From the NCBI GenBank assembly GCA_000405685.1, contig ASPF01000025.1, positions 5,347 through 29,346 on the forward strand: a DNA stretch of 24,000 nucleotides. Direction: 5' to 3'. Source of the stretch: Candidatus Geocrenenecus sp. JGI 0000106-J15. Its GTDB lineage: Archaea > Thermoproteota > Nitrososphaeria_A > Caldarchaeales > Wolframiiraptoraceae. Positions 1 through 23,467 of the stretch are shown piece after piece. The position numbers were made by a program, and so were the translations under genes. How positions within the stretch are numbered: position 1 is the first letter of the stretch; each line of letters starts with the position of its first letter. The notes under the pieces are model-generated. The model did no database searches. It saw only the letters and a program-made list of their open reading frames with translations, and had not been told where the DNA came from.

Positions 1-738
1 ATGCCGACAGGTTTCATGATGGGTGTAATCCTCGTCGGCTTGGCGAGATGCATCGCAATGGTCATTGTATGGAACGAACTTGCAGAGGGTGACAGAGAGC
101 TCGCTGTCGGGCTCGTAGCCTTCAACGCCATCTTCCAGATCCTCTTCTACGCAGTATACATCTATATCTTCATAACGTTGGCCCTAACTAATCTTGGTTT
201 GGCTGAAATTGTAAAAGCTGAAGTTAGCATCGTTGATGCTGCAAAGACAGTCTTCATATACTTGGGCATTCCGTTTATCGGCGGTGTTTTAACGAGATAT
301 GGAAGCTTCAAGCTCAAGGGTAAGGAGTGGTTCGAGAATGTTTTGGAGCCTAAGATAAGCCCGATAACTCCGATCGCATTGCTTTTCACAATTATCGTAA
401 TGTTCTCGCTGAAAGGAGAATACATAGTCGAGCTCCCATACAATGTTTTCCGAGTTGCGATTCCGCTCGCCTTCTACTTCCTCATCATGTGGTTCGTTAC
501 GTTCTTCATAGCCTACAGACTAGGTGTAGATTATCCTAAGACTACGGCAGTCTCCTTTACAGCTGCGAGCAACGACTTCGAGCTGGCAATAGCTGTTGCA
601 ATAGCGATCTGGGGAATTCAGAGCGAACAGGCTTTTGCCACGGTCATTGGTCCGCTCATTGAAGTTCCTGTGCTCATAAGCCTTGTAAACGTCGCTTTGA
701 AGTTGAGAAAGAAGATTTATGGGATAAATTTAGAGTGA
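1..738 (+). CDS. acr3: ACR3-family arsenite efflux permease (5' end cut by window edge)
   Basis: The ORF is open from base 1 and encodes a polytopic hydrophobic protein. The C-terminal [21 protein letters not shown] is typical of ACR3-type arsenite carriers. Stop TGA at 736-738. Local GC is high (bases 1-60 = 32/60). Confidence 0.8.
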
Positions 739-5011: not shown

Positions 5012-6433
5012 ATGTTTAGAGTTGATGATATCGGTATCCGTCTTCTAAGTTATGGTCCATGTAGTAGAATTAACGGGGTTGAGATAGATCCAGATATATT
5101 AATTGCTCTTGAAGGCTTGGGTACATTTAAAGGTGTAACGATCGAGGAGAGGCTGAATGAGCTTCAAGCTAAGAGTAAGGATCTTAGAGATGTGGCCTCA
5201 AGCATGCATCGAGAATCTACTAGACGGGGACATGCTTCTATTACAACATCCTTGATACTACAGTTTGAAGTAAATCCATGTAGTAGGGCTTCAACACTTC
5301 TACTTGCAGCACAGACATTCGGTTCATATCTACAAGAATCCCAGAGAAGAAGACAAGTAAACAAAGATGAATTCATCATACCTCCAAAGATAAATGATGA
5401 TGAGAAGCTATCAAGTCTATACTATGAAGCAGTTGACTATGTATGGAGATGCTATAAGTCTCTAATTGATAGAGGGACGCCTCTAGAAGATGCACGCTAC
5501 CTACTTCCGATATCCTCTCAAACATCAATATTCGTAACTGGAAGCCTAGAATCGTTCATCTGGCTAATATATTCTTCAGAGAATAGAGATGAGAGATACT
5601 TCCCGATAGAGCTGAAGAAGCTTGGAGAATCAATTAAGAAATTAGCTATGAGTATTTCTCCCCTAATTACTTCTGCCCGCCTCTCTTTCAAGCCTCTACA
5701 CTATGTCTATCCATATCCAGACCTATACAAGACGGAAGACAAGATAATAGAAGAAATAATCAAACGATACCGTGAACCCGACCATCCAATACTGATAGGC
5801 TTCAAAGTAGCTGGAGGTATTGAAGACTTCGTAGAAGAAGCATTAAAGAATCCTGAATACATGAATTCTCTAAACCCATTAATATATGCTTCAACTCTTG
5901 AACCACTCTCAATAGCTGCATATCATCAATCAATAAGACATAGAACTGTACCAACATCTGTTGAATCAATCTATAACGCTATAGAGAGAGCAGGAGGAAG
6001 CATTGAAAAAAATATAATCACTCCACCAACAATAAGATCTAAGGAAGAATCAAGCAAAATATTCAATGAAGCTATCTTTAAACTATTAGAAACTTATTCA
6101 ACTCTAATAAACGAAGATGTACCTCCGTCAGAGGCCATATACTTGTGCCCTCAAGCAGTAAGAATATACACCGTTAGAACCTATAATGCCTTCAACCTAC
6201 TGTGGCCCCAAGGATACATAGGTACAAGGACATGTAGCTATGCTCAATGGGAAGAAAGGATGATAGCTTACAGTATATGGAGGAGTATAGAGAAAGTTTC
6301 ACCGATTATCGGTAGGTTGATGGGAGAGAAGTGTAAACATCTAGGATACTGCCCAGAGAAGAATTGGTGTCAGATAATAAAGAAGTATATTCCAGAATAT
6401 AATGATGAACAACATAAGAAGATGCTGGAGTAG
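5012..6433 (+). CDS. thyX: ThyX-like (flavin-dependent thymidylate synthase family) protein with two tandem ThyX-fold halves
   Basis: Half 1: RGHASITTSLILQFEVNPCSRAS, YLQESQRR, FIIPP, EDARYLLPISSQTSIFVTG. Half 2: YHQSIRHRTVPTSVESIY (RHRxxS motif), IITPP, EAIYLCPQAVRIYTVRTYN, SYAQWEER. At 473 aa it is about twice the usual ThyX length. Confidence 0.6.
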   Translation: MFRVDDIGIRLLSYGPCSRINGVEIDPDILIALEGLGTFKGVTIEERLNELQAKSKDLRDVASSMHRESTRRGHASITTSLILQFEVNPCSRASTLLLAAQTFGSYLQESQRRRQVNKDEFIIPPKINDDEKLSSLYYEAVDYVWRCYKSLIDRGTPLEDARYLLPISSQTSIFVTGSLESFIWLIYSSENRDERYFPIELKKLGESIKKLAMSISPLITSARLSFKPLHYVYPYPDLYKTEDKIIEEIIKRYREPDHPILIGFKVAGGIEDFVEEALKNPEYMNSLNPLIYASTLEPLSIAAYHQSIRHRTVPTSVESIYNAIERAGGSIEKNIITPPTIRSKEESSKIFNEAIFKLLETYSTLINEDVPPSEAIYLCPQAVRIYTVRTYNAFNLLWPQGYIGTRTCSYAQWEERMIAYSIWRSIEKVSPIIGRLMGEKCKHLGYCPEKNWCQIIKKYIPEYNDEQHKKMLE

Positions 6434-13882: not shown

Positions 13883-13903
13883 CGTCCATCGACTGCTTGA
13901 AAC

Positions 13904-13924
13904 ATGCTCAGCATTTAATTAAAA
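13904..13924 (-). promoter_or_regulatory. Palindrome atgctcagcat next to an A/T TATA-like block, 22-42 nt upstream of the radical SAM gene start
   Basis: Read directly. On the gene strand the order is TTTTAATTAAAT, then ATGCTGAGCAT, then about 21 nt, then ATG. An operator placed between TATA and TSS is the usual position for archaeal repressors. Confidence 0.25.
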
Positions 13925-14059
13925 CATTTCCAAACTAACTCTAGTCAGAAAGTTAAGCATAGAAGTGTGTCGGGAAAGACTCAATAAATGAGCTACTTAA
14001 ATTTAAAAATCAAAATCTAAATACAACCATAACATAAACATTAAGTGAGGCTGCTGTAA

Positions 14060-14176
14060 CCCGCGGTAGCTCAGCCTGGTAGAGCGTCCGGCTGTAGCCA
14101 TGCCCATGTTGGTATGGTCACAGTGGCCAGGCTGACAGAAACCGGATGGTCGCAGGTTCAAATCCTGCCCGCGGGA
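14060..14176 (+). tRNA. tRNA-Tyr (anticodon GTA) with a 43-nt intron
   Basis: The cloverleaf was folded by hand. Acceptor cccgcgg/ccgcggg; D arm gctc-agcctggta-gagc; anticodon stem tccgg/ccgga; loop C-T-GTA-G-[intron]-A; variable loop tggtc; T arm gcagg-ttcaaat-cctgc; discriminator A. The mature length is 74 nt and it closely resembles M. jannaschii tRNA-Tyr. No CCA is encoded. Confidence 0.9.
14098..14140 (+). other. tRNA intron at the canonical 37/38 position
   Basis: A 43-nt insertion lies between G37 (14097) and A38 (14141). The exact junction is ambiguous by 1-3 nt because of flanking A residues. Confidence 0.75.
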
Positions 14177-14201
14177 TATTTCTATCCTAGTTTATATTGT
14201 T

Positions 14202-14642
14202 TTACCAAAGTTCTGGGTTCTTACTGTATCTTATCTTTTCTCGTGGGTCGTTGTTGAGCCTCCATAATCCTTTGTATGCATTTAGTATGATTATTTCTAA
14301 TTCTCCTATTACGAAATCGCTTAGTAAGACTTCTCTTTCAATCGGTGATATAACTACATCGACTGGTAGCTCATCTGATTTAGTATCTTCTTCAACTAAC
14401 TGTATAGTTGAGCCATGTTTAACTGTATAGAATCTTATAGGTCCACCTGCAGTATCATATACTGATTCTACTACATCGTTTGGTGGAGGCCATAAGCCTA
14501 GGTTTTCAGCTAGCTTGATTGGTATTATTATTTCAGGTGATGTTCCAATGTATCCCGTGTTTAAGAGAGAGCTTGTCTCTATTATTTCTCCTACTTTGAA
14601 TCCTTTTAGACTCTTAATCCTCACTCTTACCCTTATAGGCAT
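14202..14642 (-). CDS. Retropepsin-like (clan AA, AF_0612/DTGF-type) protein with Asn in place of the catalytic Asp
   Basis: The layout matches archaeal clan AA proteases: N-terminal beta strands (IRVRVRIK..), then SSLLNTGYIG..IIIPIKLAENLGL where the family has vDTGf..l.lp..la..LGL, and later VDVVISP..EVLLSDFVIGEL. Confidence 0.4.
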   Translation of the reverse strand: MPIRVRVRIKSLKGFKVGEIIETSSLLNTGYIGTSPEIIIPIKLAENLGLWPPPNDVVESVYDTAGGPIRFYTVKHGSTIQLVEEDTKSDELPVDVVISPIEREVLLSDFVIGELEIIILNAYKGLWRLNNDPREKIRYSKNPELW

Positions 14643-14856
14643 TCTTTGAATCCTCCACGACCTTTCTTAGAATCTCTATACTATAGACTCTACCAATACG
14701 TCTATAGGAGACAAGTTTTACAAAACCTATCTTCGAATTCTCCAATCCAAGAATCAACCAGTCTAAACACTATATAAGTCTTTTAGAAAATCACTATTAA
14801 CATAATTTTCTAAACCAATATCGATATATGTTAAATAGACGTATGTAGACATATGG

Positions 14857-15756
14857 ATGATAGACGTGTCTTCATGGTTTATTTCTAAGAAAATTAGTTT
14901 GGCTGTCTTAGTAATTATCGTTGCTGGCTTACTTTCTACATATCTTTACTTTGTCATCTTCTATCCTATGCTTACATCGACGTTGCCTACTTCCGCGACA
15001 GTGACAGTTAATCCATCATTAGTCAGCTTAGAATTAGAGATTACGAGTAGTGAAGGCATGAGAGAATTTAAAGATATAGCTATCATAGAGGTGGATGATG
15101 TTGATTCTTTATTGTTTAGAATTGTTGATTCAAGAGTTGAGAAGCTAGAATCTTTAAGCTTATCAGGAAGAGTTAGGCTTGAATCAGGTGAGAAAACATA
15201 TGAGATTAGTATGCCATGTATTCTTTTCCCTGCTTCTTCATGTCCAAGAATAACAATGATTATACCTGGATATGATGCGCCTTTAACCATAGAATCTGGG
15301 AGATACCTCTTAACATTCGAGCTTAGTTGGAGAGAAGCCAGAGATAGTGGAAAGGTAAGCTTAATGTTGTCGCCTAGGGCTTACGATGCATCCATGATAA
15401 GTTTAGGGTCTCGTGAACCAGGAGATACGTCGAACTGGGTTACAGCAGAGGGTTCAACGAGATCTTATACTCTCCTCGTTGATAAGGTAGAAGCTATTAC
15501 GGATGATTTGGGATTCGGTGAATTTAAAGCATATGTATGGGTCTTCCAAACTGTCGGAGATGATGTGAAGATGTTTAGATTAGAGTTAACCTCGATTGAA
15601 TCTGGAATTGTTAAAGCGGTCTTAGACGTACCAGTTGAGAAGAAGGAAATATACTATCATGTGATGCTGGCTGTCAAGGCTAGACCTGGAAGTTATGAAT
15701 TAAGCATTAAACATCCTATCCAACTATCTATAGATCTTAGAGTTAGAGAAGGTTAG
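14857..15756 (+). CDS. Hypothetical membrane-anchored (N-terminal TM) protein, probably extracytoplasmic
   Basis: 299-aa ORF with one N-terminal hydrophobic helix (ISLAVLVIIVAGLLSTYLYFVIF) followed by a beta-rich soluble part. No motif recognised. Confidence 0.45.
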   Translation: MIDVSSWFISKKISLAVLVIIVAGLLSTYLYFVIFYPMLTSTLPTSATVTVNPSLVSLELEITSSEGMREFKDIAIIEVDDVDSLLFRIVDSRVEKLESLSLSGRVRLESGEKTYEISMPCILFPASSCPRITMIIPGYDAPLTIESGRYLLTFELSWREARDSGKVSLMLSPRAYDASMISLGSREPGDTSNWVTAEGSTRSYTLLVDKVEAITDDLGFGEFKAYVWVFQTVGDDVKMFRLELTSIESGIVKAVLDVPVEKKEIYYHVMLAVKARPGSYELSIKHPIQLSIDLRVREG

Positions 15757-15795
15757 AGTTCTCTTAGAACATGCATGGATAGTTGACTCAGTATT

Positions 15796-16959
15796 TTATA
15801 CATGAATCTTCTTCCACATTTCTCTAGCTAATTCTCCATCATACTTAAAGAAATGGAGGAGTTCTTCTGCTTCTATTCTTCTCTGCTGATGTTCTTCTAG
15901 GAATGATGTAACCTTCTCGATTAATATATTCTTCATCTCTCCACTAAGGATTTTTCCTGATCTATAATCTTCCTCGAGCTTCTTAACCTTAGAATCATCA
16001 GGCTCAAAGAAGAAGTGGAGCCACTGGAAGGCAACATCTACTTCAGGATTTCCGCCTAGCTTTCTATGAAGTTCAACTGTTGGCTGACCTCCAGAATATG
16101 CTAGCCAGATCTTTTTCCTGATGGTCTTAGCATCGTCGTGGAGATATATTGCAGACTCAGGCTTACTTGCACTCATCTTTCCAGTAGGCCCAGTTAATGG
16201 GGGGAGAAACTTACTATGTATTGCAGCTGTCTTATAGTATCCGAGAGATTCAGCTATATCTCTCTGTATCCTCCAGTATGGATCTTGGTCGATTGCCGCA
16301 GGAATTAAGCATCTCTTCTTCTCGAATAGTGCTGGAACGATCTGTAATGCTGGATAGAAGATTAAGCCAATATTTGTTTCATGGGTAAATCCGAAGACTG
16401 CTCTAACCCAGCTAAAGTTAATCTTTCTAGCAACTTTAAGAGCTATCGGATACATATTCTTAACATATTCAGTATCTTGGAAGATGAATGTTCTATCAGG
16501 ATCGAATCCAACAGCGATGATGTCTAATGCATTCTCATAAGACCACTTGATGGTATCTTCTAAAGTTAATCCTCTACTCTCTTCTAGATATTTTTCATCA
16601 TCTGTTAACTGGATATAGACATTTACCTTAAACCTATCCTGTAGCCATTTAGTGAAATAGAATGGAATGATATGCCCTATATGCATCGGCCCGCTTGGTC
16701 CTCTCCCAGTATATAGGAAGAATCCTCTATCGCTCTCCCAGTCATCGAGAACTTTATCTAGATCTCTGTGGGAGAAGAATATCCTCCGTCTTAATAGATG
16801 GTGATTTTCCCCGGCTGATTTTATAAATCTCTCCATTAATTTATCATCTATTATGTTTGTCCCGAATCTTTCTACAAGCTTAATATAGTCTACTTCTCCT
16901 TCAACTACCCATGGAGTTACTGTAAAGTCTTCTCTATTACTTGAACCAAAGATATTCAC
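15796..16959 (-). CDS. trpS: Tryptophanyl-tRNA synthetase (archaeal/eukaryal type)
   Basis: TPWVVEGEVDYIKLVERFGT, GRGPSGPMHIGH (HIGH motif), AIDQDPYWR and KMSASKP (KMSKS variant). It is near-colinear with Pyrococcus TrpRS as I remember it. GTG start. Confidence 0.95.
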   Translation of the reverse strand: MNIFGSSNREDFTVTPWVVEGEVDYIKLVERFGTNIIDDKLMERFIKSAGENHHLLRRRIFFSHRDLDKVLDDWESDRGFFLYTGRGPSGPMHIGHIIPFYFTKWLQDRFKVNVYIQLTDDEKYLEESRGLTLEDTIKWSYENALDIIAVGFDPDRTFIFQDTEYVKNMYPIALKVARKINFSWVRAVFGFTHETNIGLIFYPALQIVPALFEKKRCLIPAAIDQDPYWRIQRDIAESLGYYKTAAIHSKFLPPLTGPTGKMSASKPESAIYLHDDAKTIRKKIWLAYSGGQPTVELHRKLGGNPEVDVAFQWLHFFFEPDDSKVKKLEEDYRSGKILSGEMKNILIEKVTSFLEEHQQRRIEAEELLHFFKYDGELAREMWKKIHV

Positions 16960-17069
16960 CCATCTTCTTCCCCTCTAAACTATCTAAAACTTGTTAATAA
17001 GCTTCTTCTAAAACCTTCACTATGAAGTCATCTCAAAACTGTTTAGGCTTCTCTTTCCCGGCTTTCTTT

Positions 17070-17365
17070 ATGGAGTTATTTGAGCTTAGTGATTTTGAGT
17101 AGGAGATCATTAAGCATCTACTACCTCCTAAGTCTAGGGTTGGTAGGACTAGGGCTAATGATAGGATAGTCTTGAACGGTATACTAGACATACCTACTAT
17201 TGGTAGGAAGCAGTAACCTACAATACTGAGCTATATAAGAAGATGAGAAGCGCTGTAGATAGATTCTTCGGATGGCGAAAATCATTTAGAAGAATAATTA
17301 TAAGGTATGAGGGGCCAGCATCAACATACAAAGCTGTATGTAAAATGCTAAACCAAGAATCTTAA
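17070..17365 (+). mobile_element. Internally deleted, inactivated IS5-family (IS427/DUF4096-DDE_Tnp_1 type) transposase relic
   Basis: N-terminal remnant 17070-17217: MELFELSDFE*EIIKHLLPPKSRVGRTRANDRIVLNGIL, matching LSDxEWxxIxxLLPPxxxxGRPRxxDRxxLNGIL, with the conserved Trp codon now TAG at 17100-17102. C-terminal remnant 17243-17365: VDRFFGWRKSFRRIIIRYEGPASTYKAV, matching ERFFgxLKxFRRIATRYEK. The catalytic core is missing and the two pieces are in different frames. Confidence 0.6.
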
Positions 17366-17512
17366 GCTCCAGAGGAGCTTTATTCTTCTTAAAAATGTCT
17401 ATGCCCTCAACGAGAGACGTAGTATCAACATGAGAGAAGTCACAACAGGAAGATGTATAAACCTTACATTGCTACGTCCGATTAGGAGGAATATTAATAT
17501 AGGACCGGGGCC

Positions 17513-19177
17513 ATGGTTCACTGTTTAAGATTGAGAAAAGTAGTCCAAGTTTTCTTGGTACTCTCGATTTTTGCAACTCTGATCTTAAGTGCGATAAGCG
17601 ATGAATATGGTCCTCCTATGCCGAGCGACGATTTTATAGAGAACGCCGCCGAAGAGTACTTCCTCGAATTAAAACAACCAAAATTTTCACCTGAAGACGA
17701 AGAATTATATGCTGGTCTCGTAGGTTATGAGATTAGGAGAGTTCATAATGTAACTCAAGTGTCATCACCTCGACCGAAGGTTTGTATCTACAATGAGGTT
17801 CTTTTTATTGGACACTGGGAAGAAGGCTCGTATGGTGCGGAAGTATATGGAGACAGACCTATCGGATCGCTTGACCGTTTTTACGATTCGAATGAAGGAG
17901 ATTATTATTGGAAATTCTCTATGGTAGGTGTAGTTGCTTCTGGATACTCAAACATGGGTTTTAAGCCAGGATGGTTTATCAACCCAGATTGGGGGGATAA
18001 GGTTTATGCGTGGTGGTGCTATTCCAAGGATTCGGACGGTAGTGAAGACGATGGCTCTTATGATGGTGAAGATGGTAGCTCTTATGACGGTGAAGACAGT
18101 GTATCAGACGACTTCCCCCTCGAGATTATTGTGGGTCTCACTGTACTTGTTACGGTGATCGCTGGAGTAGGTCTTTTCGTGATATCCCTAGTTTCAGGGA
18201 AGAAGACAGGCTCCATGACAAAAACCCAGATTCACCCGCCGCCACCTCCACCACCATTCTCAGCCGAAGCGGCTCCCCAAGTACAACTTGCAGAACAACC
18301 GTATTCAGAGATCGACCCTGACGTCAAGAGATGGATAGAGAATATCCCTGTGTACCCTGGCTACTGGTATGTCACGCCTGACGGCAAATATGTGACTAAC
18401 ACGATAAATCCTGACTACACGATACCTGTTGAGTGGGTAAAAGGTACATCAACTGAACCACTAGCAGAGCTATTCTCCACACCAGTCCCCAATATGCAGC
18501 ATAGAGTGTTTTCAAGCAGAATAACGGCATTGATAAAACGCAATAACCCTGAGCTCCTCGACAAACTTACTCTAGGCTCATGGCGTAAGCTTGACGGAGA
18601 CCAGCAGAGGAGTGTCTTGGAGAAGTTTGCAGACAATCTAGCGGAGCAAGTGGGGATGCCACAGATAAAAGTAGAACTCGATCCCGAGTTAGATTATGGT
18701 GCCGCATATGACTGGAATTCCAAGCCTCCGAGAATTCTTATCAATCCTAAATCTATGAACTGTCCAGCTGAGGCGATCCGAGTCGTCACCCATGAGTTCC
18801 AGCATTATGTCCAACATACCGCCCCTGAGAAGATAGTCGGCGGCACACCAGAATACATAGACGCATTAAAGAAGAATTGTGATAATTATATCCATCACAG
18901 TGATGATCCTGTACGCTATGCGGGTCAGCTTTGGGAAAGGGATGCAGAAAACATGGCCAGAATAATGCGAGAGAAGATCAACAAGGCGGCATATCGGCAG
19001 AAGCTTGAAGAGCTTGTTGAGGTTGTATGGGGTAAGGAAGGGCTTGAAATTCTCAATAAGCTCAACAAAACAGAAGCTGAGAAAAAGCTCGATAAAATTT
19101 TTGACACTGTTTTCGGTAAGGAAGGGGCCGATATTCTTCCCAGACAGCATCCTTCAAAGAAAGGGCGTAGCAGGTGA
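17513..19177 (+). CDS. Single-pass (type I-like) membrane protein: signal/anchor, aromatic-rich ectodomain, acidic repeats, TM helix, poly-Pro linker, and a cytoplasmic domain with an HExxH minimal-zincin motif
   Basis: N-terminal RLRK plus VVQVFLVLSIFATLILSAIS; DGSEDDGSYDGEDGSSYDGEDSVSDD; TM helix LEIIVGLTVLVTVIAGVGLFVISLV followed by GKKTG (positive-inside); HPPPPPPPF; and PPRILINPKSMNCPAEAIRVVTHEFQHYVQH (HExxH after a beta-strand, like SprT/DUF4157). The C-terminal region has a repeated (W/F)GKEG(L/A)(E/D)IL. The DNA is GC-richer than its flanks. Confidence 0.6.
   Translation: MVHCLRLRKVVQVFLVLSIFATLILSAISDEYGPPMPSDDFIENAAEEYFLELKQPKFSPEDEELYAGLVGYEIRRVHNVTQVSSPRPKVCIYNEVLFIGHWEEGSYGAEVYGDRPIGSLDRFYDSNEGDYYWKFSMVGVVASGYSNMGFKPGWFINPDWGDKVYAWWCYSKDSDGSEDDGSYDGEDGSSYDGEDSVSDDFPLEIIVGLTVLVTVIAGVGLFVISLVSGKKTGSMTKTQIHPPPPPPPFSAEAAPQVQLAEQPYSEIDPDVKRWIENIPVYPGYWYVTPDGKYVTNTINPDYTIPVEWVKGTSTEPLAELFSTPVPNMQHRVFSSRITALIKRNNPELLDKLTLGSWRKLDGDQQRSVLEKFADNLAEQVGMPQIKVELDPELDYGAAYDWNSKPPRILINPKSMNCPAEAIRVVTHEFQHYVQHTAPEKIVGGTPEYIDALKKNCDNYIHHSDDPVRYAGQLWERDAENMARIMREKINKAAYRQKLEELVEVVWGKEGLEILNKLNKTEAEKKLDKIFDTVFGKEGADILPRQHPSKKGRSR
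18050..18094 (+). repeat. Imperfect tandem coding repeat (gatggctcttatgatggtgaa / gatggtagctcttatgacggtgaa) encoding DGSYDGE / DGSSYDGE
   Basis: Read directly. It lies just outside the predicted TM helix. Confidence 0.7.
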
Positions 19178-19181
19178 TATC

Positions 19182-19967
19182 ATGCAGGCAAACCAGATCC
19201 CTTCATGGGTTCCTGAAAAGTCGAGGAAACTGATCTGGAAGATAGCATCTGCGCTTAAAGAGCTTGGATACAGCGAGGGACCCATGCTCTGGGACGCTGC
19301 AAGACGTATGGCCATTACGCCAGCCCTGACCGAAGACATGTTTGCATACATCGCAGCTGGAAAGCCGAAAGTTGAAGCGGGACAGCCGAGTCCCCGCATG
19401 CTCTCGAGACAACTTCCAGGAAACTACACAGTAGCATCCCTCATGCTAGATCTTGGACTGAGCCCTGCAGGCGCCTTCCTACTAGGTGCAGAACTAGTAA
19501 ACAATACTCCAGCCGCCTTAAAGATGATAGAGAAAATGATCGAGGAAGGTTACTGCATAATGCTTCCAGACGGAAAGAGAGCTCTAGTCTATCCACCAAT
19601 CTCAGAAAAATATCCGTCATGTCCTAACTGCGGCATGAGATGGATAAGGAAATATGAGAACTGCCCCACATGCGGATACAACGAGAAATACAAGCAGATC
19701 GACCTCGGCCAGCTTCCAGAAAGTGTAAAAGAGATGATCAGAAAAGAGCTATTGGGGGATATAAGTAAAGGCCCAGACCAGACAGAGAAATGCCCCTCTT
19801 GCGGTGCACCCATAAAAGCTGGGGATAAAATCTGTGAGACCTGCGGTGCGACGGTTAAGCAACCTGTCCAGCGAAGATCCGCACCTCGATTCTGCGAAAA
19901 ATGTGGAGCAAAGCTACGGAAGGGTGCAAGATTCTGTGAAATGTGTGGTGCGCCTGTCCGTGCCTAG
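19182..19967 (+). CDS. Helical N-terminal domain protein with three C-terminal zinc ribbons (CPxCG-type / double-zinc-ribbon-like)
   Basis: ATG 19182 lies 4 nt after the upstream stop (19175-19177). The track ORF from 19005 would overlap the upstream gene by 173 nt. Ribbons: CPNCG-x12-CPTCG; CPSCG-x10-CETCG; CEKCG-x10-CEMCG. Confidence 0.6.
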   Translation: MQANQIPSWVPEKSRKLIWKIASALKELGYSEGPMLWDAARRMAITPALTEDMFAYIAAGKPKVEAGQPSPRMLSRQLPGNYTVASLMLDLGLSPAGAFLLGAELVNNTPAALKMIEKMIEEGYCIMLPDGKRALVYPPISEKYPSCPNCGMRWIRKYENCPTCGYNEKYKQIDLGQLPESVKEMIRKELLGDISKGPDQTEKCPSCGAPIKAGDKICETCGATVKQPVQRRSAPRFCEKCGAKLRKGARFCEMCGAPVRA

Positions 19968-20204
19968 AAAGCATTCAGTGTAGACCAGCTACTTCACGTT
20001 AATCTTTACGCTCTGAGTATATTTTTCAACCAGCCAACAGCAGCTGGATATCTAGCATTAATGGCAGGTATAGAAACTGGTCTTAAATGTATCTTAGATG
20101 TGTATATCATTTCATATTTTTATGTTAATCTTCTCTGTGACTACGGGGATATCTATAATACTTAAGGCTGTAATAGATCCTTTGACCGGGATAAGTGGTA
20201 GGTC

Positions 20205-21098
20205 ATGGATGATGCTGGATTAGATGCTTTAAGAAGAGCTGGTAGGATAGCAAGGAAAGTTAGAGAAAAATCTCTAAGTATTGTTAGAGAAGGTGTAAGC
20301 TTGATCGATGTATGTAGTCTTCTTGAAGGGTTGATTCTAGATGAAGGTGCTAAGCCAGCTTTCCCATGTAATATCTGTATAAACGATGTAGCTGCACATT
20401 ATACACCTACAATAGGAGATAGATCAATAATTCCTCCTAGATCTCTTGTTAAAATAGATATAGGTGTATGCGTTGATGGTTATATCGCTGATACTGCTAT
20501 AACTATATCCCTGGATTCATATTTACAGCCAATAGTTGAAGCAGTTAACACTGCATTACTTGAAGCTGTGAAGATCATTAAACCTGGTGTGCAAACCTCT
20601 ACTATAGGAGGGGTTATCCAGCGTGTTATCACTAGTAGAGGATTTAAACCTATAAGGAATCTAACAGGTCATGAGATTACTAGATATAATCTACATGCAG
20701 GTCTCTCTATACCTAATATCCAGATAGCGAGAGGTGAGAAGCTCGAATTAAACCATGTATACGCTATAGAGCCTTTTGCAACAATGAGTGATGGTGGAGG
20801 AGAAGTAGTCTCATCAAATACTACTACGATCTATAGATTAAATGTTGGAAAGTTTAAACTTGAGAAGCTTGAAGAAGAAAGAAAGCTTCTAGAATTCATC
20901 TATGAAAGATTCAACGGTCTACCATATACGCCTAGATGGATACCTGACTTCGAGAAGCTTAGTAAAATACATGATAAGATTGTTAGGCTGGGAAAGATCT
21001 ATTCATATCCTGTATTAGTTGAAAGAAAAGGTAGGCCTGTATCTCAAGCTGAGCATACAGTAATAGTCACAGAAAAAGGATGTGAGGTCATTACCTAG
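20205..21098 (+). CDS. map: Methionine aminopeptidase, type 2 (archaeal)
   Basis: AAHYTP, DIGVCVDGYIADTA, NLTGHEI, YAIEPFAT and AEHTVIVT: the metal-ligand blocks in canonical order. Confidence 0.95.
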   Translation: MDDAGLDALRRAGRIARKVREKSLSIVREGVSLIDVCSLLEGLILDEGAKPAFPCNICINDVAAHYTPTIGDRSIIPPRSLVKIDIGVCVDGYIADTAITISLDSYLQPIVEAVNTALLEAVKIIKPGVQTSTIGGVIQRVITSRGFKPIRNLTGHEITRYNLHAGLSIPNIQIARGEKLELNHVYAIEPFATMSDGGGEVVSSNTTTIYRLNVGKFKLEKLEEERKLLEFIYERFNGLPYTPRWIPDFEKLSKIHDKIVRLGKIYSYPVLVERKGRPVSQAEHTVIVTEKGCEVIT

Positions 21099-21159: not shown

Positions 21160-22503
21160 CTATTCTTGTTTTTCTAGGATAGCCCACTTAACTCCTTTTC
21201 CTAAATGCTTCGTCTTCTCCCAGAAAACTTCTTTAAATATTTCTTGGTAGAATGCTCTTAATGCTGCGAGCGGCATCATAAAATTCATGTAGTATATCAT
21301 GTGAGGGATATACTTAACCAAAGTTTTCGCCGTGCCTATTTTTTCCAATATTGCTCCAGCTATCCATGTGTAATAGTAGATAACATTAAAAGAGAGAGGA
21401 AGTATTACCCACCATGGGAAAAGGTCTACTGTTAGTTTAAAAGGAACTATACCCAGATATTCAAGTGACCAGTATATCGTCATACTGTATGCAACCCAAT
21501 TTAAGACAACGATTAATGGAGCGATAAGCATAAAGATTATAGATAAAGTATTGATGAACCCTATCCTCCTTGTTACCGAAGGTACAGAAAGCATAATTAG
21601 ATATTTTATGAGACTCTGTATCCACCCTCTAAACCATCTAGTTCTCTGTCTTAGCCAAGCCTTGAAATTTGTAGGAGCTTCTTCCCAATGTCTTGCATCT
21701 ATGACTATCGTCCTCCTCTTAGATAGATAGAATCTTATTGCTACCTCGGCGTCTTCAGCTAGATTTAATGGATCCCATCTACCGATTTCTCTTATCAGAG
21801 ATGCTTTAAAGTAGTTTCCAGTCCCACCTAATGGTGTGTATAAACCTAGTTTTGATCTTCCATTAAGCATCACCCTAAACCATCCTGCATACTCCATTGA
21901 AAACATCTTCGTTATCCAGTTATCTTCTTGGTTACTTATACGTAGGATTACCTGTACAGATTCTATGTTGTAGTTCTCAATTGCAGATGCAACCTTCAAG
22001 AATGTATCATGCTCAGGTATATCTTCTACATCTATGATACCTATTATTTCCCCTGTACATAGAGAGAGTGAATCGTTTAATGCACTAGGCTTTGTGGCGA
22101 AGTATGCTCTCCTAACCAATGGTTTAACATTTCTTGGGTAGAGCTGAGAGTACCATGTTGCTATTCTCTCTCCTACAGGATCCTCTGTTACAATTACTAT
22201 TTCCTTGCTATCTCTCGGATATTCTATATGGTTTAAGCAGACATCAATCGTTCTAGAAAGGATCGGCTCATCCCTGGCTGGTAGTATGAGAGAAATCTTA
22301 GAATGTCTCCGTGGATTTACTCCAGGATTAAAAGGTCTCTTTAACCCATATGTTATAATTATGATGTGGTAAACTCCCCATAAAGTGTAGATTAATGTGA
22401 GGCTATAAGCAATAAATAGGAGTGATGGTTTAGGGAGTATAATTAAGGCTAATAGTAGTATCGAGACAGAGGCTAAGAAGACTATGGGTCTAGTTCTCAT
22501 CAT
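21160..22503 (-). CDS. Membrane-embedded processive family-2 glycosyltransferase (cellulose/chitin/PNAG-synthase-like)
   Basis: Two N-terminal TM helices, then a GT-A domain (ILPARDE, IIDVEDIP as the DxD-like motif, LAEDAEV as the ED motif) and QRTRWFRGW (the Q(R/Q)xRW processivity motif), then about 4 C-terminal TM helices. Confidence 0.8.
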   Translation of the reverse strand: MMRTRPIVFLASVSILLLALIILPKPSLLFIAYSLTLIYTLWGVYHIIIITYGLKRPFNPGVNPRRHSKISLILPARDEPILSRTIDVCLNHIEYPRDSKEIVIVTEDPVGERIATWYSQLYPRNVKPLVRRAYFATKPSALNDSLSLCTGEIIGIIDVEDIPEHDTFLKVASAIENYNIESVQVILRISNQEDNWITKMFSMEYAGWFRVMLNGRSKLGLYTPLGGTGNYFKASLIREIGRWDPLNLAEDAEVAIRFYLSKRRTIVIDARHWEEAPTNFKAWLRQRTRWFRGWIQSLIKYLIMLSVPSVTRRIGFINTLSIIFMLIAPLIVVLNWVAYSMTIYWSLEYLGIVPFKLTVDLFPWWVILPLSFNVIYYYTWIAGAILEKIGTAKTLVKYIPHMIYYMNFMMPLAALRAFYQEIFKEVFWEKTKHLGKGVKWAILEKQE

Positions 22504-23467
22504 TCATAACTACACTATGTAGAGAGGTAAGCTCTCGTATAATCTTATCTTTCGAACTCTCTAAATCATCTATTTTTATTATTTTAATCTTCTCTGGATT
22601 CAGTATCTTCTCAAGCTCAGGTTTAAAATCAGAAGGTAAAATTAAGAACATAATTGAGTTTGGTACGTCTACAGCTTCGATCACCATCATGAATGGGTAT
22701 CTCTCATCTATTTCTCCACTTAAGCCAAATTCTACAATTATAGATGGGCTACCATCAATAAATATCGGTATGGTGTATGTTGTTCCACTTATACCTTTAA
22801 CGTGCTTAAATCCTTCAGCTCTTAGACCATGTAATGTAAGTTCTCTAACTAAGTCTTCTACAACATTATAGATTGGCAGTAGCTTCTTAATCTCATTCGA
22901 TAACTTGTAGATTGGATATTTCTTAATCGTTAATTCATCTACTTTATTTTTATGTCCTTTCTCACAGATTAACCAGATTAACGGTATCTGGAAGATCGAT
23001 CTACAATCTCTGCAGATATAGCCGAAGCCTGGTCTACCATAATCGATCCCAACTCTCTTTAATTCTTTCCCACATTTTGGGCATCTATACAGCCTCGACT
23101 GGCTCTGCATAAATTCTTCTTCTGAACCCATATAGTTACAATCATAGTGTACCATTAACTCTTTCTTCTCAATGTTGTTTGAGCTGCAGTCAGGGCAGAC
23201 TATCAATGGTCGGATGCAGACATCCTCACATATATTGCATGCTGGTAGAGAAACATCTTTCACTACTTCTATGTAGCCTCTTTCTAGATAGTATTTCATC
23301 TTCTCCTCGGGTACTTCTATACCGAATAAGTCATAAACTACACCCAGCCCTTGCCTAATCTCTGGTTTAAACTCTACATCCCTATTTTCAGTTGTCGCTC
23401 TATATGCTGATGAAAAGAAATGCTTATCGAGAGACTCCGCCCAATGGTATATCTTTGATACCTCCAA
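22490..23467 (-). CDS. Multi-zinc-ribbon protein, TackOD1-like, with an uncharacterised C-terminal alpha/beta domain
   Basis: CNIC..x10..CPDC, HYDCNYMGSEEEF, CPKCGKELKRVGIDYGRPGFGYICRDC..FQIP..ICEKGH, then GISGTTYTIPIFIDG. TTG start with a TTTATAT box about 24 nt upstream. The 3' end overlaps the GT2 gene start by 14 nt. Confidence 0.5.
   Translation of the reverse strand: MEVSKIYHWAESLDKHFFSSAYRATTENRDVEFKPEIRQGLGVVYDLFGIEVPEEKMKYYLERGYIEVVKDVSLPACNICEDVCIRPLIVCPDCSSNNIEKKELMVHYDCNYMGSEEEFMQSQSRLYRCPKCGKELKRVGIDYGRPGFGYICRDCRSIFQIPLIWLICEKGHKNKVDELTIKKYPIYKLSNEIKKLLPIYNVVEDLVRELTLHGLRAEGFKHVKGISGTTYTIPIFIDGSPSIIVEFGLSGEIDERYPFMMVIEAVDVPNSIMFLILPSDFKPELEKILNPEKIKIIKIDDLESSKDKIIRELTSLHSVVMNDEN

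Follow-up and report, generated by a model that had tools for sequence, protein, structure and literature searches.

The window analysed here, 24,000 nt of contig ASPF01000025.1 of Candidatus Geocrenenecus sp. JGI 0000106-J15 (positions 5,347 to 29,346 of the forward strand; coordinates below are those of the window unless a locus is named), includes the genes for an archaeal-type tryptophanyl-tRNA synthetase (trpS) and a type-2 methionine aminopeptidase (map). The DNA between them is occupied by a decayed insertion sequence (IS) of the IS5 family, by two co-oriented genes, designated geneA and geneB, and by the last codons of a third, convergent gene, geneC (Table 1). The product of geneA is a predicted membrane protein with a zincin-like C-terminal domain, and that of geneB carries an array of zinc ribbons. 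A preliminary description of this DNA had placed the two genes 4 nt apart, which is indeed the distance between the stop codon of geneA and the ATG of geneB at 19182. The results presented below indicate that this block of ~3 kb is very probably a horizontally acquired islet.

Table 1. Features of the trpS–map region, in window coordinates
Feature	Positions	Strand	Remarks
trpS, archaeal-type tryptophanyl-tRNA synthetase	15796..16959	-	left flank; Pfam tRNA-synt_1b (E value 3e-26)
Decayed IS5-family transposase	17070..17365	+	N-terminal piece 17082-17189, C-terminal piece 17219-17365 in other frame; stops; DDE core deleted
Terminator-like hairpin, then T-run	17364..17380	+	directly after stop codon of IS relic; consensus match only
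geneA, 554 aa	17513..19177	+	stop 19175-19177; open reading frame and hydropathy
HEFQH, H427-E428-x-x-H431	18791..18805	+	putative zinc-binding/catalytic motif of geneA
E475-R-D477 (ERDAE)	18935..18943	+	candidate third metal ligand of geneA (gluzincin-type); E and D invariant in family alignment
geneB, 261 aa	19182..19967	+	helical N-domain ~10-140 and three CxxC...CxxC zinc ribbons
geneC stump, last 14 codons and stop	19989..20033	-	convergent to geneB; tblastn with intact geneC (L009, L010), 71-79% over 14 aa
map, type-2 methionine aminopeptidase	20205..21098	+	right flank; Pfam Peptidase_M24 (E value 2e-33)

Among 80 relatives of trpS retrieved for comparison, the nearest ones having usable upstream sequence are the eight loci L014–L021, in which trpS is 78–88% identical to that of the window. 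They take in Aigarchaeota SKYB24 (88%), Ca. Wolframiiraptor allenii, gerlachensis and sinensis (78–80%), and relatives; these named relatives are anaerobic thermophiles (PMC9246946). The relatives of trpS, together with a TackOD1 protein encoded in the window (see below), place the host among the Caldarchaeales ('Aigarchaeota') of the Nitrososphaeria, as an uncultivated thermophile of low GC. In all eight, map lies head-to-head with trpS at a distance of 117–331 bp, and neither geneA nor geneB is present. In the window and in the related locus L006 the same two genes are 3.2 kb apart, i.e., a conserved gene order is broken. The synteny comparison proposed in the preliminary description therefore backs an insertion. 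L014, which is the first insert-free relative outward, has a GC content of 0.384, the same low value as the host of the window. The insert is confined to the population of the window and one sister lineage (L006, L013, and L097–L100). The window junctions are identical in four independent assemblies of that population from different samples (L001–L004), and the sister lineage has a diverged insert with the same junctions in several further samples. Its sequence identity to the window is 95% for trpS, 88% for map, 74% for geneA, and 88% for geneB.

The composition of the two genes sets them apart from their surroundings, for which the background was ~24–29 kb of this genome. All five GC counts given in the preliminary description (24, 18, 26, 30, and 33 of 60 nt) proved exact on recount. 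In sliding windows of 500 nt, the GC content is 0.46–0.49 over positions 17751–20000, versus ~0.34–0.43 in the rest of the window; the first ~1 kb of the window is also high (0.45–0.46). The segment made up of geneA and geneB (17513–19967; 2455 bp) has a GC content of 0.468, compared with 0.380 (sd 0.017, maximum 0.415) in non-overlapping windows of equal size (z = 5.2). In tetranucleotide usage it lies at a distance of 0.40 from the rest of the window, compared with 0.15–0.23 for control chunks. At the third codon position, the GC content (GC3) reaches 0.43 in geneA and 0.49 in geneB, while the mean of 20 other genes is 0.325; because GC3 is raised, the excess is not an effect of amino acid usage alone. 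The two genes are outliers in all three measures. That description had extended the GC-richer DNA over 17070–20060, which applies to geneA and geneB but not to the stretch with the IS relic (16960–17512; GC 0.385) or to the right spacer (19968–20204; GC 0.367), both of which are host-like. It had also called the products rich in Pro, Gly, and Ala. Pro is indeed enriched, about 2-fold (7.4% in geneA and 8.8% in geneB versus 4.4% in the other genes) and so is Ala in geneB only (10%), but Gly is not.

The GC-rich first kilobase corresponds to a partial gene at positions 1–738 (+) for an SBF-family transporter (sodium/bile-acid/ACR3-type). Its GC content is 0.458 and its GC3, 0.553, lies above that of the islet; this gene, at the left end of the window, may have been acquired as well.

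At the left edge of the block, translation in two frames reveals the remains of a transposase, with a DUF4096-like N-terminal piece and a C-terminal piece from the DDE-transposase region. The pieces match the NCBIfam model transpos_IS5_3 (NF033580) with E values of 1e-12 (48 bits) and 7e-7, below the cutoff of 110 bits, and there are Pfam matches, again below cutoff, to DUF4096 (E value 1e-4), DDE_Tnp_1 (2e-4), and DDE_Tnp_1_2 (8e-3). Although fragmentary, the relic is by these matches clearly homologous to IS5-type transposases, and the dead transposase noticed earlier at this edge is real. It shares the DUF4096-like and DDE regions with the family; it differs in scoring below cutoff, in its broken frame, and in its internal deletion, and neither an intact open reading frame nor terminal inverted repeats nor a target-site duplication was found. 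It is a relic rather than an element. A longer relic of the same IS, with part of the DDE region kept, occupies the same position in L006 and L013, so that the IS was there before these lineages and that of the window split. A fragment of 56 bp, 84% identical to the same IS, is located just downstream of geneB in the unrelated context of L005 (12376–12431).

The right edge preserves the trace of a third gene. The DNA at 19970–20042 is 78–88% identical to the region following geneB in L006, L009, L011, and L010/L094. In L009, L010/L094–96, L011, and L093, an intact geneC follows geneB in convergent orientation and encodes a membrane protein of 163–224 aa, with several transmembrane (TM) segments and a C-terminal domain, for which no Pfam match was found. 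L006 keeps a longer relic of geneC than the window does. Because the stump follows geneB here and the gene is intact at other loci, the original insert carried A-B-C and measured at least 3.1 kb, with geneC lost since in the lineage of the window. Searches for flanking direct or inverted repeats returned only chance-level matches of 10–16 nt, and the family and repeat searches agree with the earlier remark that integrase and flanking direct repeats are missing. The dead IS5 transposase is the only trace of mobility machinery at the insert. Nor is there an adjacent tRNA that could have served as an integration target, as the sole tRNA (14060–14176) is 3 kb away. Since integrase, terminal repeats, and tRNA target are all lacking, the way in which the DNA was inserted cannot be recovered.

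That tRNA gene (+ strand; 117 nt; Rfam 58.8 bits; missed by ARAGORN) is presumably an intron-containing archaeal tRNA. It belongs to a segment at 13883–15795, between a radical-SAM gene and trpS, that also contains two open reading frames without family (146 aa, - strand; 299 aa, + strand). The segment is present in the window and in L006/L013, and its GC content is host-like; in L014 it is missing, trpS being ~270 bp from the radical-SAM gene with no tRNA between them. This lineage-specific segment is the second of the region, and trpS separates it from the islet.

Elsewhere, geneA and geneB are always adjacent to each other and their surroundings differ, with at least five genomic contexts in archaea. 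The module lies beside the gene for V-ATPase subunit AC39 and a LAGLIDADG gene in L005, L007, and L008; near genes for reverse gyrase, DZR, and DUF2085 in L010 and L094–96, which come from Great Boiling Spring-type samples; on a contig with one weak Terminase_6C neighbour in L009; and beside PIN and helix-turn-helix (HTH) genes in L093, a Verstraetearchaeota metagenome-assembled genome (MAG). A further metagenome scan for new contexts of the module returned only lineages already known. In Caldarchaeales-type loci the GC content of the cargo is near constant (0.45–0.48 for geneA and 0.49–0.53 for geneB) while that of the flanks is 0.38, 0.43, or 0.53, which indicates that the composition belongs to the module and moves along with it. 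Hosts of ~50% GC, such as Wolframiiraptor-like genomes (0.49–0.55), match this composition. GC3 of geneA and geneB is 0.43 and 0.49 in the lineage of the window, versus ~0.46–0.50 and 0.56 at the other loci, which is consistent with partial amelioration. Stand-alone DZR genes are found near two of the archaeal loci (L010, 329–739; L093, 3661–4317).

The pair is also found in bacteria. A tblastn search of plasmids identified it on pAQ7 of Picosynechococcus sp. PCC 7002 and on four related plasmids; the pAQ7 pair has the accessions WP_012305594/WP_012305595. The pAQ7-type A protein is a multi-TM protein of 829 aa, the C-terminal domain of which has 31% identity (E value 4e-28) with residues 267–504 of geneA, including the HExxH motif. 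The B gene overlaps A by 7 nt and encodes a protein of 262 aa annotated as 'zinc ribbon domain-containing protein', with 32% identity to geneB over 250 aa (E value 3e-51) and with all 12 Cys kept. The metagenomic loci L108 (41% identity to geneB) and L110 (70% GC; 36.5% identity to geneB) contain pairs in which A has the exact architecture of geneA, i.e., signal, ectodomain, acidic or Ser linker, TM helix, Pro linker, and zincin domain. Neither IMG/VR nor phage genomes yielded any relative of geneA or geneB. The search for copies elsewhere that the preliminary description had recommended thus succeeded for plasmids (five from Picosynechococcus, at 31–32% identity), other archaea, and bacteria, but not for viruses or phages. 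The two genes, which had been taken for cargo of no housekeeping identity, are not orphans; they make up a module conserved across archaea and bacteria. The pairing is tight and probably involves translational coupling. Selection thus acts on the zincin domain together with geneB as a unit, and the sensor-like N-terminal part is exchanged freely.

Two further features of these bacterial loci may be mentioned. L108 (2854–3813) and L110 (3538–4290) have a third co-oriented gene, in the product of which one or more N-terminal zinc ribbons are joined by a Pro/Ala-rich linker to a TM helix and an ectodomain. Upstream of the A/B pair on the cyanobacterial plasmids, and on its strand, lie a gene for a Reg_prop beta-propeller protein and the operon of an ABC transporter (L105, 3389–4441; pAQ7), and these neighbours may point to a functional association with transport or sensing.

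The divergence between the window and L006 allows the insertion to be dated. The number of synonymous substitutions per site (dS) is 0.40 for geneA and 0.36 for geneB, compared with 0.43 for trpS, 0.42 for map, and 0.49 for the radical-SAM gene. The cargo is therefore as old in this pair of lineages as its flanks, and since the insert is absent from L014–L021, a single insertion is indicated, after the split from SKYB24-like relatives and before the split between the window and L006. Both genes have been inherited vertically since then under purifying selection, with a ratio of nonsynonymous to synonymous substitution rates (dN/dS) of 0.36 for geneA and 0.18 for geneB. In the preliminary description, the sharing of both genes, locus, and composition by close relatives was named as a sign against acquisition. 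The sister lineage L006/L013 does share all three, but as L014 has no insert and dS is equal in cargo and flanks, this only dates the event.

The empty sites in relatives, the atypical composition, and the distribution over multiple contexts together support the horizontal acquisition suggested earlier, and we assign a probability of about 0.9 to the reading that the ~3-kb block is an islet acquired in the trpS/map intergenic region in the following way. In the clade of Ca. Wolframiiraptor, trpS and map would ancestrally have been arranged head-to-head, sharing a promoter region of 0.1–0.3 kb. A three-gene module, composed of geneA, geneB, and the convergent geneC, would have been inserted in the common ancestor of the window and its sister lineage, coming from a donor of ~50% GC. 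Vertical inheritance, partial GC amelioration, the decay of geneC to a stump of 14 codons, and the decay of the IS5-family element would have followed. The islet shares with other small genomic islets the broken synteny, the atypical GC, GC3, and tetranucleotide values, the patchy distribution over unrelated contexts, and a decayed transposase at one edge. It differs from them in that neither an integrase nor a tRNA target accompanies it and that it has neither direct nor terminal inverted repeats; it is also old, common to two lineages, partly ameliorated, and short of one cargo gene.

Several points weigh against acquisition as described. The composition was judged on ~29 kb of the genome, and another gene in the window, the one at 1–738, is equally GC-rich. 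Cluster names yielded no host taxonomy for the other contigs with the module. The exact breakpoints could not be mapped because the trpS/map intergenic DNA of L014, L015, and L016 is too diverged to align, and the insert shows no target-site duplication to mark its ends.

Other explanations of the block have to be weighed against the same evidence. The genes could be ancestral at this locus and have been deleted in the relatives, with a GC content that reflects amino acid usage or expression-linked codon usage. The enrichment of Pro, and of Ala in geneB, would fit this, as would the second GC-rich gene and the sister lineage with both genes at the same locus and with the same composition. It would require, however, that clean and independent deletions had restored a spacer of 117–331 bp in eight relatives, including L014 with its equally low GC; moreover the rise in GC extends to GC3 and is not limited to GC1 and GC2 (first and second codon positions), the module occupies unrelated loci elsewhere and matches the ~50% GC of those hosts, and it is present in bacteria and another archaeal class. 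We consider such an ancestral origin very unlikely. A chimera of assembly or binning has a negligible probability: the contig is described as metagenome-assembled and the shift in composition is abrupt, but the junctions shared by four independent assemblies exclude an artefact, and the diverged insert with the same junctions in the sister lineage, as well as the match between the dS of cargo and flanks, argue in the same direction.

A different question is whether the IS5-family element mobilised the cargo, in the manner of a composite transposon or by one-ended transposition, so that both arrived as one unit. The relic abuts the cargo in the window as well as in the sister lineage, and the fragment of the same IS downstream of geneB in L005 adds to this. 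There is nevertheless a single IS copy, with no second copy on the other flank; the GC content of the relic is host-like, unlike that of the cargo; four of the loci with the module (L009, L011, L094, and L093) show no IS relic; and it may be that elements of the IS5 type are just frequent in these genomes. Transport of the cargo by the IS is thus possible but unsupported, and we regard it as unlikely. For the acquisition of a three-gene module, taken together with the account of the cargo given below, our confidence is good, though lower than for the event itself.

The product of geneA begins with a signal/anchor helix (residues 7–31), which is followed by an ectodomain (~32–170), an acidic linker of Asp, Gly, and Ser, and a TM helix (199–230); a linker PPPPPPP (242–248) then leads to the zincin-like domain (~263–520). 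From the positive-inside distribution of charges, geneA is predicted to be a type-I membrane protein with its C-terminal domain in the cytoplasm. The ectodomain of ~140 aa was modelled as a helix and an antiparallel sheet with moderate confidence. Between lineages its identity is ~31%, versus 67% for the C-terminal domain. The acidic linker, of the type GEDGSSYD, is encoded by a 24-nt tandem repeat at 18042–18089 (GTGAAGA(C/T)G...TCTTATGA(T/C)G), and its length varies among homologues. No Pfam, NCBIfam, PHROG, or PADLOC family matches geneA, and among 5.8 G proteins it is represented by seven clusters at 90% identity.

In a profile search of 1.84 billion representatives, 269 relatives were retrieved, all by the C-terminal domain alone. 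In the nearest of them, one to six TM segments precede the domain, and the remoter ones are small soluble proteins or portions of giant multidomain proteins. In 32 divergent relatives, H427, E428, E475, and D477 are invariant and H431, Q434, N455, Y459, Y469, and Q472 nearly so, and of 50 remote homologues inspected, almost every one has HExxH. Twelve of the 32 relatives match Pfam DUF6782, a putative metallopeptidase, and others have sub-threshold similarity to SprT-like, M48, M76, M78, or YgjP. PDB sequence profiles from three family alignments gave no significant match; the matches obtained, with E values of 0.09–1, are mostly zincins (Spartan, projannalysin, selecase, Ste24, BepA, IrrE, aminopeptidase N, and HtpX). 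In the AlphaFold2 (AF2) model, the sole confident part of geneA is 340–440 (predicted local distance difference test, pLDDT, 70–88), in which helices and a three-stranded sheet precede the HExxH helix (418–436). Confidence is low for the helix bearing E475 and D477, and E475 is a predicted ligand.

Thus, geneA probably has a gluzincin-like HExxH...E site, as suggested by motif conservation and by sub-threshold matches. As in zincins, the conserved HExxH is on a putative active-site helix that follows a small beta-sheet, and there is an invariant Glu, ~44 residues downstream, which would be the third ligand of a gluzincin; no match to a characterised zincin reaches significance. By profile, the nearest groups are Pfam DUF6782, SprT-like/Spartan, and the minigluzincins selecase and projannalysin. 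The family differs from the known zincins in its distinct signature, HEx(R/K/Q)HxxQ...NxxNY...YxxQxxExDA, in the membrane tethering of the domain behind a Pro-rich linker, and in the constant pairing with geneB within the close subfamily.

The C-terminal half of the geneB product is a bona fide array of DZR/Zn_Ribbon_1 type, with ribbons at C147–C164, C204–C221, and C238–C255 and Pfam matches above cutoff to DZR (E value 7e-13; 48.9 bits, cutoff 27.3) and Zn_Ribbon_1 (E value 3e-14; 52.6 bits, cutoff 25). In Pfam, NCBIfam, PHROG, and PADLOC, geneB matches zinc ribbons only. From the archaeal to the cyanobacterial proteins, none of the 12 Cys varies. What defines the family relative to other double zinc ribbon proteins (PF12773/PF13240) is the specific N-domain of ~140 aa, which was modelled by AF2 with a pLDDT of ~90. 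It has no fold match in PDB or BFVD, the BFVD matches of geneB being to the zinc ribbons only. An HTH in helices 84–122 and the hairpin after them was considered and dropped, since the pattern is unlike the classical motif. The N-domain occurs in about a dozen clusters of 5.8 G proteins, and about a dozen relatives are full-length. With 76–88% identity, geneB is more conserved than geneA (44–74%). In L005 (11532–13445) and L007 (11534–12127), the match to geneB is limited to residues 1–190, the two C-terminal zinc ribbons being absent or replaced; in this lineage, the IS5 fragment and a LAGLIDADG_3 homing-endonuclease-like gene come directly after geneB.

Of the functions considered, the likeliest, although possible rather than probable, is that geneA acts as a one-pass transmembrane sensor-protease with a dedicated substrate, adaptor, or regulator in geneB. 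The variable ectodomain would face outward and be coupled, via one TM helix and the proline linker, with a metallopeptidase domain of gluzincin-like type (HExxH...ExD) in the cytoplasm. The product of geneB would be a cytoplasmic partner that is translationally coupled to geneA, and an external or envelope cue at the ectodomain would control either the cleavage of geneB or a cleavage that geneB recruits. This organisation resembles those of BlaR1-BlaI and MecR1-MecI (M56), and of ImmA-ImmR and IrrE-DdrO (M78), in which a zinc protease gene, here putative, is co-transcribed with that of a small cytoplasmic partner. With BlaR1 it would also share an extracellular sensor domain that is linked across the membrane to an HExxH domain in the cytoplasm. 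The likeness is one of logic and not of ancestry, as there is no sequence relationship or significant fold relationship to the M56 and M78 systems, and the partner is a novel helical domain with three zinc ribbons in place of a winged HTH or XRE domain. Pfam searches gave no match to Peptidase_M56 or Penicillinase_R for geneA or geneB, and the Foldseek match to BlaR1 (E value 0.35) is not significant. Neither does geneA match M78, although one of the 32 relatives does so weakly (E value 0.004), and geneB matches no HTH family. More broadly, geneA and geneB, ancestrally with geneC, could represent an undescribed, horizontally mobile signalling or conflict module of archaea and bacteria built on a gluzincin of a new family, a proposal that is speculative and less likely than not.

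Against these functional proposals it must be said that no experiment is known for any member of the family: literature searches for DUF6782 and for the cyanobacterial homologues were empty, and general searches gave nothing specific. In addition, geneA falls outside the curated families, its full AF2 model is poor (pLDDT 51) with no significant Foldseek match to PDB (best E value 0.08), and searches with the N-domain of geneB detected no relative of known function, nor could an HTH be demonstrated in it.

The cargo might instead be a conflict or addiction module of the toxin-antitoxin or abortive-infection type, in which the tethered zincin would be a latent toxic effector, geneB its neutraliser, and the ectodomain a detector of virus attachment or envelope damage. 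The patchy, cross-domain distribution, the location on plasmids in cyanobacteria, and the occurrence in variable regions beside PIN and HTH genes agree with this idea. The idea is also in line with the contexts of remote relatives of the zincin, which are of a kind typical of conflict systems: these relatives occur within giant multi-domain proteins, of which one includes a ParB-like DGRHR segment, and another relative has a weakly WXG100-like N-terminus. The rapid divergence of the ectodomain could be read in the same way, but its dN/dS between the window and L006 is 0.39 and reveals no positive selection. Furthermore, geneB has the lower dN/dS of the pair, the opposite of what is typical of fast-evolving immunity or antitoxin proteins. 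No model of PADLOC-DB 2.0 matches A, B, or C, as the best E value is 0.004 or worse and concerns short coiled-coil-like or Zn-ribbon stretches, and viral or phage copies were not found. Such a role is doubtful, and we rate it below that of a sensor-protease with a dedicated partner.

Beyond map, the window contains a family 2 glycosyltransferase (GT2) gene (21160–22503), which is intact here and broken over several frames in L006 (13878–15217), where it is probably a pseudogene. It adjoins a gene (22490–23467, - strand) for a protein with thaumarchaeal output domain 1 (TackOD1) and a zinc-ribbon-like segment. This TackOD1/GT2 pair is kept in L006 and is not near map in L014.

The event itself is ordinary, i.e., a textbook and well-dated case of horizontal acquisition, with an empty site in relatives, in the poorly sampled order Caldarchaeales. 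The partial amelioration of the cargo and the ongoing decay of the parts not under selection, geneC and the IS, make it useful for calibrating the detection of horizontal gene transfer in MAGs. The cargo is what gives the case added value: its two 'hypothetical' genes belong together as a conserved pair of archaea and bacteria, extremely rare though they are, and through them a larger, uncharacterised zincin-like family of 269 representatives with an invariant metal-site signature has been defined. The versions in the cultivable Picosynechococcus PCC 7002, on plasmid pAQ7, make the function testable by genetics. If the functional proposal is true, the module would move among thermophilic archaea, cyanobacterial plasmids, and high-GC bacteria, and would establish one-pass transmembrane sensor-proteases of this type as a new class of system.

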